Of a DNA stretch of 29,140 nt, positions 3,392 to 13,264 are shown piece by piece; the stretch's first letter is position 1, and every line of letters begins with the position of its first letter. The position numbers and the translations under genes were made by a program. The notes below the pieces were generated by a model. It searched no databases. It saw only the letters and a program-made list of their open reading frames with translations, and was not told the origin of the DNA. Source of the DNA: Candidatus Micrarchaeota archaeon (GTDB taxonomy: Archaea; B1Sed10-29); the NCBI GenBank assembly GCA_964388265.1, contig CAYLXZ010000009.1, forward strand, positions 1 through 29,140. The letters are read 5' to 3'.

Positions 3392-3575
3392 ACTAAGGTT
3401 AGAGAGCCTGAAAGACATATCAGAAAGCTACTCCATGAAAGAATGTCTAGAAGACCTGGAAGAAATAACTGAAATGCTTGACGAAGAAGAAGAGTCTGAG
3501 ATACTAGAAAAGATTCGAGACATGGAGAAAAGAGTACGGGAAAAAGTCCTAGAAGATAAAAAAGGATCAAAATGA
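3363..3575 (+). CDS. Small acidic helical hypothetical protein (70 aa from ATA 3363, or 46 aa from ATG 3435)
   Basis: Open frame fills the gap before gltX and ends in an ATGA overlap with gltX. Codon usage is like the neighbours. SD GGAGGGATCAAG directly precedes ATA 3363. Sequence (M)DKKTKKGLELRLESLKDISESYSMKECLEDLEEITEMLDEEEESEILEKIRDMEKRVREKVLEDKKGSK. Confidence 0.6.
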   Translation: MDKKTKKGLELRLESLKDISESYSMKECLEDLEEITEMLDEEEESEILEKIRDMEKRVREKVLEDKKGSK

Positions 3576-7510: not shown

Positions 7511-7530
7511 AAGCCAACAAAGTGACTAAG

Positions 7531-9270
7531 ATGCTTAGATCACCAATAATCTGTATAATGGGTCACGTAGACCACGGGAAGACAGCCATACTAGACTACA
7601 TTAGAGGCACAGCCGTGAGAGAAGGAGAAGCAGGAGCCATAACCCAACACGTAGGCGCGAGCTTCATCCCAACCCAAACAGTCAAAGAACAAAGCAAAGA
7701 ACTACTCGACAAATACGGATACGACCTAGAAATACCAGGACTACTATTCATAGACACACCAGGACACCAAGCCTTCACATCACTAAGGAAAAGAGGAGGA
7801 AAAACAGCAGAACTAGCAATACTAGTAATAGACGTCACACAAGGAGTACAACCACAAACAAAAGAAGCACTAGAAATAATGAAGAAACACAAATGTCCAT
7901 TCATCATAGCAGCAAACAAAATAGACAAAATCCAAGGATGGAGACCAAACCAAGGAGAAAGCTTCTCAAAAACCATCAAAAAACAAAGCGAAAGAACCAA
8001 GAAACTTCTAGACGACAAGATATACGAAATAATCGGAGATGTAGCATCAAAAGAATTCAACTCACAGAGATTCGACAAAGCCGAAAACCCAGAAGACACC
8101 ATCCTAATAATCCCAACATCAGCAGAAACAGGAGAAGGAATACCAGAACTCCTAATGTTCCTCTCAGGACTATCACAAAAATACATGAAAAAATCACTAG
8201 ACGTAAAATCAGATCAACCAGGAAAAGGAACCATACTAGAAGTAAAAGAAGTCAAAGGACTAGGAAAAACTATAGATGTGATACTAGACACAGGTAAAAT
8301 AAAGAAAGGAGACAAAATAATCCTAGGAACAAAAAACGAAGCAATAGAAACCAAGATAAGAGCCCTACTAGAACCAAAAGAACTAGAAGAAATGAGAGAA
8401 GCAAAAGGAAACCAATTCAAAAGAGTAAAAGAAGTCAACGCAGCCGCAGGAATCAAGATAGCTGCACCGGACCTAGAAAACGCAGTACCAGGATCCTCAA
8501 TCCAAGTAGCCACAGAAGAAAACAAGGAAGAGATAAAAAAAGAGATAGAAGAACAGATAAAGAACGTGGAGATAGAAAACGACAAAACAGGAGTAATAGT
8601 CAAAGCAGACACAATAGGATCATTAGAAGGAGTAACAGACCTATTCAAAGACAAAGAAATACCGATAAAAAGAGCTAACATAGGGAAAGTGAGAAAGAAA
8701 GATTTGATAGAAGCAGAATCAATAAAGAAAGATAACCGGTACCTAGGAGCAATATTCGCATTCAACACAGAAGTACCAGAAGAGATAGAGAAAGAAGCAA
8801 AAGAAAGAAATATACAGATATTCCAATCAGACATCGTCTACGAACTAGAAAAACAATACAAAGAATGGAAAGAAAAAGAAGAAAAGAAAGCCAGGCAAGA
8901 AAAACTCGAAAAATACACCTATCCAGCCAAGATAAAGATAATGCCAGAACACACATTCAGAAAAAGCAAACCAGCAGTAGTAGGCGTAAAGATACTTCAA
9001 GGAAAACTAAAACCAGGCTACAGACTAATGAACCAAGAAGGAAAAAAACTAGGAGAAGTAGAAAGCATACAAATCAAAGAAGAAAACATAGATCTCGCCG
9101 AAAAAGGAGACGAAGTCGCAGTAGCCATATCAAACGTCACAGTAGGCAGACAGATAGAAGAAGGAGAAACACTCTACACAGACGTACCCGTAGACGAAAC
9201 TTACGATCTTGAAGAAGAAGGATTCAAAAACAAACAATTACTAAGAGAAATAAGAAGAATAAAGAGGTGA
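7531..9270 (+). CDS. infB: Translation initiation factor aIF5B (IF-2)
   Basis: LRSPIICIMGHVDHGKT, EAGAITQHVGA, IDTPGH, ANKID, KADTIGSLEG. ATG 7531 is preferred over GTG 7522, which looks like part of the AGTGA SD. Confidence 0.97.
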   Translation: MLRSPIICIMGHVDHGKTAILDYIRGTAVREGEAGAITQHVGASFIPTQTVKEQSKELLDKYGYDLEIPGLLFIDTPGHQAFTSLRKRGGKTAELAILVIDVTQGVQPQTKEALEIMKKHKCPFIIAANKIDKIQGWRPNQGESFSKTIKKQSERTKKLLDDKIYEIIGDVASKEFNSQRFDKAENPEDTILIIPTSAETGEGIPELLMFLSGLSQKYMKKSLDVKSDQPGKGTILEVKEVKGLGKTIDVILDTGKIKKGDKIILGTKNEAIETKIRALLEPKELEEMREAKGNQFKRVKEVNAAAGIKIAAPDLENAVPGSSIQVATEENKEEIKKEIEEQIKNVEIENDKTGVIVKADTIGSLEGVTDLFKDKEIPIKRANIGKVRKKDLIEAESIKKDNRYLGAIFAFNTEVPEEIEKEAKERNIQIFQSDIVYELEKQYKEWKEKEEKKARQEKLEKYTYPAKIKIMPEHTFRKSKPAVVGVKILQGKLKPGYRLMNQEGKKLGEVESIQIKEENIDLAEKGDEVAVAISNVTVGRQIEEGETLYTDVPVDETYDLEEEGFKNKQLLREIRRIKR

Positions 9271-9275
9271 AACAG

Positions 9276-9914
9276 ATGAAGATAGTAGTATCAGACCCAA
9301 AAGAAGGAAGAACATACCAGAAAGAAATAGATGAAGACGAAGAAAAAGCACTGTACAGAAAGAGAATAGGACAAGAGATACAAGGAAGTCTCCTGGACCT
9401 AAACGGATACACACTAAAGATAACAGGAGGAAGCGACAAACAAGGATTTCCAATGAGAAAAGGAGTAAACACCACAGAAAGAAGAAAAGTACTACTCTCC
9501 AGCGGAACAGGGTTCAATCCCAAGAAAAAAGGAATCAAAAGAAGAAAAACAGTAAGAGGAGAAATAGTAAACAAAGAAATCGAGCAACTTAACCTAAAAG
9601 TAACAAAAGAAGGCAAGAAAGACCTAAAAGTCCTATTCGGACTAGAAGAAGAACCAGAAGAAACAAAAGAAGAGGAAAAAGAAGAAACAGAGACAGAAGA
9701 AGCTGAATCAGAAGAGAAAGAAGAAACAGAAACTGAAGAAGAGACGGAAGAACAAGAAAAAGACGAAGAAGCAGAAGAAGAAACGGAAGAACAAGAAGAA
9801 AAGGAACCTGAAGAAGAAAATGAAAAAGAGACAGAAGAAGTCGAATGCCCAGAATGTGGAGAGACCTTTGACTCGGAAAAAGGAATGAAAATACACAAAT
9901 CCCAAGCACATTAA
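9276..9914 (+). CDS. rps6e: 30S ribosomal protein S6e with acidic C-terminal extension and C2H2 zinc finger
   Basis: KITGGSDKQGFPMR, RRKTVRG, QLNLKV; then about 65 aa of E/T/K-rich sequence and CPECGETFDSEKGMKIHKSQAH; SD GAGGTGA before ATG 9276. Confidence 0.95.
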   Translation: MKIVVSDPKEGRTYQKEIDEDEEKALYRKRIGQEIQGSLLDLNGYTLKITGGSDKQGFPMRKGVNTTERRKVLLSSGTGFNPKKKGIKRRKTVRGEIVNKEIEQLNLKVTKEGKKDLKVLFGLEEEPEETKEEEKEETETEEAESEEKEETETEEETEEQEKDEEAEEETEEQEEKEPEEENEKETEEVECPECGETFDSEKGMKIHKSQAH

Positions 9915-9955
9915 ATAGAAAACAGAACAAATAAAAAGAAAAGGAGTGGATCAAA

Positions 9956-11152
9956 ATACCCGAACCAAAACAACCAGAAGTAAACATAGGCCTATCAGGA
10001 CACGTAGACCACGGAAAGACATCAGTAGTCAAACAACTAAGCGGAAAATGGACAGACAGACACTCAGAAGAACTGAAAAGAGGAATAACAATGAAGCTAG
10101 GGTATGCAGACACCACATTCTACAAATGCAAAGACACAGAGAAATACACAGCCAAGAAAGACGAATGCGAAGACCCAGAGACACTTAGAAAAATATCCTT
10201 CGTGGACTGCCCGGGCCACGAAACACTCATGACAGTGACACTGTCCGGAGCAAGCATAATGGACGGAGCACTCCTAGTGATAGCAGCAAACGAAGAATGC
10301 CCACAACCACAAACAAAAGAACACCTATCCGCCCTAGAAATAGCGGAAATAGACAACATAGTAATAGTTCAAACAAAAATAGATCTAGTGGACAAAGAAG
10401 AAGCCAAGGAACACAAAGAAAAGATAGAGGAATTCGTAGAAGGAACAATAGCAGAAGACGCTCCAATAATTCCAGTGTCCTCACACCACGAAATAAACTT
10501 CAATACACTGATAAAAGCAATAGAAGAAGAAATACCCACTCCAGAAAGAGATCCAGACAAACCAGGAAGAATCCAAATAGCAAGATCCTTCGACATAAAC
10601 AAGCCAGGATCACAGATAAAAAACATAAAAGGAGGAGTAATCGGAGGATCACTAATACAAGGAGAACTAGAAAAAGGAGACAAAATAGAGATAGTTCCAG
10701 GAATAAAGGAAGATGGAGAAACCCAGAAAATAGAAACAGAGATAACCTCACTATCCACAGAGAACCATGAAATAGAAAAAGCAAAGCCAGGAGGACTAAT
10801 AGGAGTCCAAACAAAACTAGATCCATCCCTAACCAAAGGAGACAACCTAATAGGATGCATAGCAGGAGAACCAGGAACACTACCATCAGTAAGAAAAGAA
10901 CTAGAAATAGAACCAACACTATTCAAAGAGAGCGTGGACTTCGAAGAAGTAAACCCACTAAAAGTCAACGAAAACCTAGTGCTAAACTCAGGCACAGCAA
11001 CCGTACCAGGAACCGTTGAAAAAGTCTACGGCCAAGAAAAAGCAGAAATAAAACTAGGAAAACCACTAGCCGTAGAAAAAGGATCCAAAATAGCAATATC
11101 ACGGAAATCCAAATCCAGATGGACCCTAATAGGATACGGAATAGTCAAATAA
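9956..11152 (+). CDS. eif2g: Translation initiation factor aIF2 subunit gamma; apparent AUA start
   Basis: The frame upstream of the ORF-track ATG (10091) encodes PEPKQPEVNIGLSGHVDHGKT...TDRHSEELKRGIT. It is closed by TAA 9932-9934 and has no ATG/GTG/TTG in that interval. Also DCPGHE, CPQPQTKEH, RSFDINKPG, RWTLIGYG. Confidence 0.95.
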   Translation: MPEPKQPEVNIGLSGHVDHGKTSVVKQLSGKWTDRHSEELKRGITMKLGYADTTFYKCKDTEKYTAKKDECEDPETLRKISFVDCPGHETLMTVTLSGASIMDGALLVIAANEECPQPQTKEHLSALEIAEIDNIVIVQTKIDLVDKEEAKEHKEKIEEFVEGTIAEDAPIIPVSSHHEINFNTLIKAIEEEIPTPERDPDKPGRIQIARSFDINKPGSQIKNIKGGVIGGSLIQGELEKGDKIEIVPGIKEDGETQKIETEITSLSTENHEIEKAKPGGLIGVQTKLDPSLTKGDNLIGCIAGEPGTLPSVRKELEIEPTLFKESVDFEEVNPLKVNENLVLNSGTATVPGTVEKVYGQEKAEIKLGKPLAVEKGSKIAISRKSKSRWTLIGYGIVK

Positions 11153-12830: not shown

Positions 12831-13121
12831 ATGAACATGGAAACACAGAAAAAAGAAGAAAGACCCTTATATCACAGAGAAGAAATACAGATAAAGATAG
12901 ACGGATACAAAGAAACTCCATCAAGGAAAGAAGTACTTGAAAAAGCAGCCGCAGAACTAGGGTACGACAAAGAAACACTAGTAATAAGCCAGATAAACCA
13001 AGAAAGAGGTAAAAAAGAATCAACAGTCAAAATAGAAGCCTACGATTCCCCAGAAAACCTAGAAAAATACAGCAAAGCATACAAGAAAGAAAGAACAGAA
13101 CAAAAGGAGGAAGAAGAATGA
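12831..13121 (+). CDS. rps24e: 30S ribosomal protein S24e
   Basis: PLYHREEI, TPSRKEV, AYDS; position between spt4 and rps27ae; SD GGTGA before ATG 12831. Confidence 0.9.
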   Translation: MNMETQKKEERPLYHREEIQIKIDGYKETPSRKEVLEKAAAELGYDKETLVISQINQERGKKESTVKIEAYDSPENLEKYSKAYKKERTEQKEEEE

Positions 13122-13264
13122 AAACAGACACCTATGAAGTAAAAGACGATGAAGTAGAAAAGAAAAACCCAGCATGTCCAAAATGCGGAGAAGGAGTATA
13201 CCTAGCGGAACACGAAGACAGATACCACTGCGGTAAATGCGGCTACACACGCTGGAAAGATTAA
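13118..13264 (+). CDS. rps27ae: 30S ribosomal protein S27ae
   Basis: Below the ORF cutoff. MKTDTYEVKDDEVEKKNPACPKCGEGVYLAEHEDRYHCGKCGYTRWKD; ATGA overlap with rps24e. Confidence 0.96.
   Translation: MKTDTYEVKDDEVEKKNPACPKCGEGVYLAEHEDRYHCGKCGYTRWKD

Follow-up and report, generated by a model that had tools for sequence, protein, structure and literature searches.

An AUA codon as the probable start of the aIF2-gamma gene in a Micrarchaeota archaeon, and probable AUH starts of the same gene elsewhere in its order

In the accessible portions of the reviews on the subject, AUG, GUG and UUG are given as the start codons of archaea, and aIF1 of S. solfataricus is described as blocking the binding of the 30S subunit to an AUU mRNA (PMC7531240, PMC4705826, PMC6237735). 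The available text of one of them presents two systems in which an initiation factor is tied to the strictness of start selection: the E. coli infC gene, encoding IF3, which begins at AUU and is under translational autocontrol, IF3 being a factor that rejects non-canonical starts, and eukaryotic eIF1 (with an AUG in poor context) and eIF5, which are autoregulated through start-site stringency (PMC4705826). A literature search on non-canonical starts of aIF2-gamma, or on such starts in these archaea, found nothing. Here, we describe the aIF2-gamma gene in a stretch of 29,140 nucleotides (the window) for which an AUA start, and with it an archaeal analogue of the infC and eIF1 loops, had been proposed beforehand (the original prediction).

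The window belongs to a Candidatus Micrarchaeota archaeon genome, labelled G000, which is a 725-kb MAG of 45 contigs with a completeness of 82%. The comparison covered 31 species representatives of its phylum and 18 species of its order, including five family relatives (G001-G005) deposited as “Candidatus Iainarchaeum archaeon” or “Candidatus Micrarchaeota archaeon” MAGs. The sense strand of the window has a very strong A-over-T skew (at most 0.61 per 2 kb) that changes sign with the direction of the genes at about 2, 18 and 26 kb, and third codon positions across G000 are 47-48% A and 14% G. Open reading frames and Pfam matches place aIF2-gamma in its customary archaeal neighbourhood, aIF5B (7522-9270), S6e, aIF2-gamma, a PIN protein, pyrophosphatase (PPase) and RpoE', and the order S6e-aIF2-gamma-PIN is kept in the relatives' loci across the order. 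The S6e protein itself carries an acidic tail of about 90 residues, rich in E, T and K, with a zinc-finger-like CPECGETFDSEKGMKIHKSQAH at its C-terminal end.

The original prediction held that the P-loop of aIF2-gamma lies upstream of the first in-frame ATG, and that no canonical start codon precedes that ATG. Both points were borne out by walking the frame and by Pfam. After the in-frame TAA that bounds the frame, the codons read AAA GAA AAG GAG TGG ATC AAA ATA CCC GAA CCA AAA CAA, followed by CCA GAA GTA AAC ATA GGC CTA TCA directly before GHVDHGKT; the open frame from 9935 thus encodes KEKEWIKIPEPKQPEVNIGLSGHVDHGKT..., and contains no ATG, GTG or TTG between the TAA and 10091. Read from the ATA at 9956, the protein matches GTP_EFTU (6.5e-30, residues 9-194), GTP_EFTU_D2 (4.9e-09) and eIF2_C (6.7e-21, residues 315-397), in other words an EF-Tu-type GTPase domain with its P-loop, domain II and the C-terminal domain typical of eIF2-gamma. 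G000 has no second aIF2-gamma match, and each of the 41 genomes searched has one. Automatic gene calling truncates the gene, and the version found in the public protein collection is a 353-aa product from ATG 10091 in which the P-loop is missing. The coordinates of the features are collected in Table 1.

Table 1. Features of the aIF2-gamma locus (window coordinates), and candidate loci for ATH starts elsewhere in G000
Feature	Position	Strand	Basis or remark
Upstream gene, ribosomal protein S6e	9267..9914	+	Pfam Ribosomal_S6e 2e-45, ORF list
In-frame TAA, upstream bound of the aIF2-gamma frame	9932..9934	+	
Shine-Dalgarno (SD) site GGAGTGGATC	9943..9952	+	8/10 matches to the G000 consensus GGAGGTGATC
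GTG, out of frame, within the SD	9946..9948	+	Opens an unrelated 80-aa frame; not the start
Inferred start codon ATA of aIF2-gamma	9956..9958	+	Homologous to the relatives' ATG; SD spacing
aIF2-gamma CDS	9956..11152	+	398 codons plus stop 11150-11152; Pfam domains
G1 / P-loop GHVDHGKT	9998..10021	+	Columns invariant in alignment A1
First in-frame ATG	10091..10093	+	Internal Met of the switch-1 motif RGITM, not a start
ATH-start candidate loci in G000	C5 (L111), C1 (L116), C4 (L114), C1 (L115), C12 (L112), C7 (L113)		

To place the start, we made use of the ribosome-binding sites of G000 as a whole. Because 16S rRNA was not found in the MAG, the anti-SD was deduced from gene starts, and the 5-mers upstream of 702 called ORFs yielded the SD consensus GGAGGTGAT. 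Starts in G000 lie 7-10 nt behind GGAG, with a peak at 8-9 nt, and 4-7 nt behind GGTGA. The ATA at 9956 lies 9 nt behind the GGAG at 9943-9946 (run 4, 8/10 matches, offset 13), although its contiguous SD core amounts to only 4 nt (GGAG), plus GATC. The same SD filter let through only 94 of the 7651 in-frame codons found upstream of first canonical starts in this genome. The leader lacks stable structure (MFE -3.7 kcal/mol, z +1.0), and the S6e stop lies 41 nt ahead of the ATA. An SD complementary to the consensus, at the usual spacing, is combined with the absence of any canonical codon before the P-loop. In addition, all five family relatives have an ATG 14 codons before GHVDHGKT, as do three of three related metagenome contigs at the same position, and the layout “...GAT AAA ATG” of G001-G005 corresponds to “GGATC AAA ATA” in the window without an indel. 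Three findings thus uphold the claim of an AUA start, namely the homologous ATG of the relatives, the distance from the SD and the identical assembly of a second sample (see below), and we regard ATA 9956 as a well-supported start of aIF2-gamma. The GTG at 9946, for its part, had been said to have no spaced SD, and indeed it overlaps the SD and is out of frame. The original prediction also pointed to a sequence shared with the start of gltX. The window does contain two copies of the 8-mer GGATCAAA, one at 9948 and one at 3564, the latter directly before the ATG of another gene, but the 8-mer by itself is not above chance (1.5 occurrences expected, and two or more in 46 of 100 shuffles).

A tree of aIF2-gamma makes four species with ATG the sister group of G000, and a fifth ATG species is the outgroup. 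Since all family relatives and metagenome contigs carry ATG, the ATA arose on the lineage of G000, as an ATG-to-ATA change on its terminal branch. In the wider order, a canonical start is absent from aIF2-gamma in 3 of the 18 species, which belong to three families: G000 (ATA), G015 (ATC) and G011 (ATA). G015, of family f2, reads “AGGTGAgtaagt ATC AAA AAA GTA ATT CAA”, and from the stop that bounds the frame to the P-loop it has none of the canonical codons; G011, of family f7, reads “TAA GGTGAgaaa ATA GTT AAA CAA” and likewise lacks them ahead of the P-loop. Three more species, G006 (ATC), G016 (ATC) and G013 (ATA), have a GGTGA aimed at an ATH 5 nt downstream; these cases are ambiguous, as each species also has an ATG or GTG in frame, placed within the SD or before it. 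The weak start is seen in 0/5 family relatives, in 0/3 metagenome contigs and, with G000 included, in 3/18 species of the order, with three more probable. Judged by these alignments and SD placements, aIF2-gamma appears to be a recurrent site of AUH starts in the order, its canonical start having been lost at least three times.

We compared this with ten control families (L7Ae, L24e, NDK, aIF5B, S6e, PIN, PPase, RpoE', S27ae and Kae1) taken from the same loci across the order; an eleventh control query gave no homologue. Counting determinable instances only, as many instances were not present in the loci, the control genes have a canonical start in 139 of 140 cases; two PPase instances begin slightly downstream of the stretch searched, at ATG and TTG. 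The sole exception is RpoE' of G016, in which an in-frame TAG follows ATG AGC ATG. There, contig C16 (L325) reads ATG AGC ATG TAG AAC ATT GCC ACC ATA CGC. The corresponding codon of G000 is TAC, and the TAG may reflect a nonsense change, a restart or an error. The contrast of 3/18 with 1/140 gives a Fisher p of 0.005, or of 0.035 without G000, values that overstate the difference given that related genomes are not independent.

Background rates of ATH starts were low in the relatives scanned. In 160 kb of G015, aIF2-gamma was the only ATH match among 156 ORFs, and there was none among 141 ORFs of G001 and 73 ORFs of G013. In G011, with 317 ORFs, the filter let through 3 ATH codons out of 195, and none of the three reached an SD run of 5, in a scan where skew-based gene calling was poor owing to the weak skew and where aIF2-gamma itself, split at a chunk boundary, fell outside the count. 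A search for related loci with the single protein as query gave no match in genome contigs or metagenome contigs, and one with the alignment was drawn to common GTPase motifs, so that EF-Tu-like proteins made up most of its matches. For a broader view, 80 archaeal species were sampled. Leaving aside five loci that could not be determined, a canonical start was available in 74 of 75, including all ten Bathyarchaeia loci of the sample. The exception is a Poseidoniales MAG (L162), which has CTG GCA where its relatives L191 and L215 have ATG GCA, and whose aIF2-gamma has no canonical codon before the P-loop.

Within G000, canonical starts with SD support number 213 ATG, 22 TTG and 16 GTG. Upstream of first canonical starts, ATH is enriched among strong-SD positions (16/539, versus 78/7112 for other codons), and among the 681 complete ORFs we count about four ATH starts that are well supported and three that are plausible. 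The Memo gene has an ATC start, with its Pfam domain beginning at residue 7 and its first canonical start only at codon 72. The start of an ACT-pair protein is an ATT behind GAGGTGAT, with a domain from residue 4 and a first canonical start at codon 31. A DUF4878 lipoprotein starts at ATC behind GGAGGTGA; without this start it would lack its signal peptide and lipobox. In relatives, the codon that corresponds to the Memo start is ATG in 3/4 cases and the one that corresponds to the ACT start is ATG in 2/2, while the ATC of the lipoprotein is retained in G002; three of the ATH starts of G000 are recent replacements of ATG. It is therefore well supported, as far as domain boundaries and alignments tell, that at least three other conserved genes of G000 begin at ATC or ATT. 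The same SD scan gave matches that we set aside as false or unsupported (C4:18751, C4:18754, C8:399, C4:35929, C1:18743, C10 rc 1532 and C2 rc 26941). In the window, an ATC at 13019 (13019-13264) lies behind AGAGGT, 33 codons before the ATG of S27ae; its peptide looks non-coding, and the match is probably due to chance.

Two aspects of the translation machinery bear on how such a codon could be read. The incomplete set of 30 tRNA genes found in the G000 MAG, several of which contain introns, includes one of the initiator type (C8:21929-22037), with the anticodon CAT and three G-C pairs by the anticodon loop. Its intron, as placed by ARAGORN, measures 31 nt and lies at position 40/41. The initiator anticodon is thus normal, and since the ATA at 9983-9985 encodes the conserved Ile of EVNIG within aIF2-gamma, AUA does not appear to be reassigned, with the proviso that the tRNA set is incomplete. 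The AUA start would then be read by the CAU initiator tRNA with a mismatch at the third position. The gene for aIF1 (SUI1) was not found in G000, at 82% completeness, while it was found in 38 of the 41 genomes searched, including four of the five family members. EF1-alpha was not found in G000 either, and in G001, G002 and G003 it lies about 8 kb from SUI1. Because the two are close in relatives and both missing here, the region that holds them is probably a single unassembled one. Loss of aIF1 as a cause of relaxed stringency in G000 was therefore rejected, the MAG being incomplete and the linked EF1-alpha missing too.

Several explanations other than a functional AUA start have to be weighed. 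A sequencing or assembly error might hide an ATG, or an extra A in the AAAA run might mask a start at GTG 9946, both of which the original prediction had raised as alternatives. Depth is indeed low, and our check covered assembled contigs, with the codon represented in public runs on two samples within a single study. In these, however, the contig from the probable source sample shows no differences over 9300-10700 (depth 7.8), and a 651-base contig from the second sample, covering 9591-10241, shows no differences and no gap (depth 2.5); contigs of two further runs do not span 9911-9957. As independently assembled contigs of two samples are identical, a G-to-A error at 9956 is unlikely, and so is an extra A, the more so since the register “...GAT(C) AAA ATN” is shared by relatives, free of indels. 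Given, in addition, that GTG 9946 sits inside the SD and that similar ATH starts occur in independent genomes, we consider an error highly improbable. It is also very unlikely that translation starts elsewhere, be it at ATC 9950, by a frameshift from GTG 9946, or at ATG 10091 with a P-loop-less or dead protein as the product. ATC 9950 is in frame, G013 has an ATG two codons upstream of an ATA in a similar string, and the 353-aa version from ATG 10091 is the one in the public collection. Yet ATC 9950 lies only 3 nt behind GGAG (run 2, 4/10 matches), and the homologous start codon of the relatives aligns with the position of the ATA. The 45 codons from the ATA to ATG 10091 are conserved, with 6-13 synonymous and 6-8 non-synonymous codon differences from the relatives, and the Met of RGITM is itself conserved in all five family relatives; the gene, moreover, is single-copy, essential and intact over 398 codons.

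If the AUA start is accepted, the question becomes why aIF2-gamma should have it. Drift alone could be responsible, through decay of ATG to ATH in a small, A-rich and G3-poor symbiont genome, made tolerable by a strong SD, the involvement of aIF2-gamma being a coincidence. The ATH starts of G000, three of them recent replacements of ATG, fit this explanation, as do its third positions (47% A, 14% G). It is weakened by G001, which is more biased (58% A, 11% G) and has no ATH start among its 141 ORFs and an ATG on aIF2-gamma, so that composition bias was rejected as a sufficient cause. Against drift also stand the recurrence of the same gene in G015 and G011, with no other convincing ATH start there, and the contrast between aIF2-gamma and the control genes; we regard drift on its own as possible but somewhat unlikely. 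At the other extreme, the AUH start might make aIF2-gamma synthesis sensitive to the activity of aIF1 and aIF2, in a stringency feedback. The loss of the canonical start in three families of the order, specific to aIF2-gamma in that control genes keep theirs, speaks for such a loop, as do the three further species with an SD aimed at ATH and the uniqueness of the gene among the 156 ORFs of G015; stringency control by aIF1 and the infC and eIF1 precedents are on record in the available parts of the literature. The original prediction had counted ATG in all close relatives against itself, and ATG is what the five family relatives and the three metagenome contigs have, along with most of the phylum, while canonical starts prevail in the broad sample. 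Unrelated genes of G000 also use ATH, and more ternary complex should raise initiation at AUA, which would amount to positive feedback and not to homeostasis. Feedback is therefore an improbable reading, and we are equally doubtful that the AUH start was selected instead of tolerated, as an archaeal counterpart of infC and eIF1 that arose repeatedly (ATA, ATC, ATA).

The reading we prefer, and consider likely from the alignments and the SD, is that G000 has a functional, single-copy aIF2-gamma gene with an SD-led AUA start, which is weak but tolerated, or perhaps even mildly favoured, on this gene. The 30S subunit would pair with GGAGUGGAUC (9943-9952), thereby placing the AUA in the P site, and the normal initiator tRNA (CAU) would read it by a third-position mismatch, presumably inserting Met, with a lower efficiency. 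The ATA itself would be a recent ATG-to-ATA substitution on the genome's own branch, in a genome that tolerates such starts. A weak start may also lower the output of aIF2-gamma relative to that of S6e just upstream, which would make it a means of down-tuning the factor. That S6e and PIN are equally coupled within the operon and have never lost their canonical start in the order's loci counts against down-tuning, although the far commoner loss of the start in aIF2-gamma than in the control genes leaves room for a reason specific to this gene.

An essential initiation-factor gene that is repeatedly found without AUG, GUG or UUG offers a test case for the strictness of start selection in archaea, and the locus bears on whether the link between start-codon stringency and the genes of initiation factors, known from bacteria and eukaryotes, exists there too. 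On the practical side, gene callers cut the P-loop off aIF2-gamma and likewise truncate the Memo, ACT and lipoprotein genes, which leaves errors at these loci in both the annotations and the marker-gene sets of these MAGs.

Among known systems, infC resembles the locus in that an initiation-factor gene begins at an AUH near-cognate codon behind an SD. Unlike the ATA of G000, which is derived and not conserved in the family, the AUU of IF3 is widely conserved according to the portion of the source available (PMC4705826). IF3, as presented in that portion, rejects non-canonical starts, whereas aIF2-gamma is the tRNA-carrying GTPase. With eIF1 and eIF5, the locus would share the tying of initiation-factor synthesis to a weak initiation site; those systems, as far as the excerpts describe them, involve scanning and an AUG in poor context or uORFs, whereas the site in aIF2-gamma is SD-led and non-AUG. 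ATA, ATC and ATT are allowed as rare starts in NCBI table 11, and animal mitochondria use AUA and AUU starts; codons of the same class, in a small, A-rich and strand-biased genome, are what we find here. Mitochondria, however, read AUA as Met in elongation too, whereas in G000 elongation still reads ATA as Ile, and the initiator tRNA has its normal CAT anticodon.
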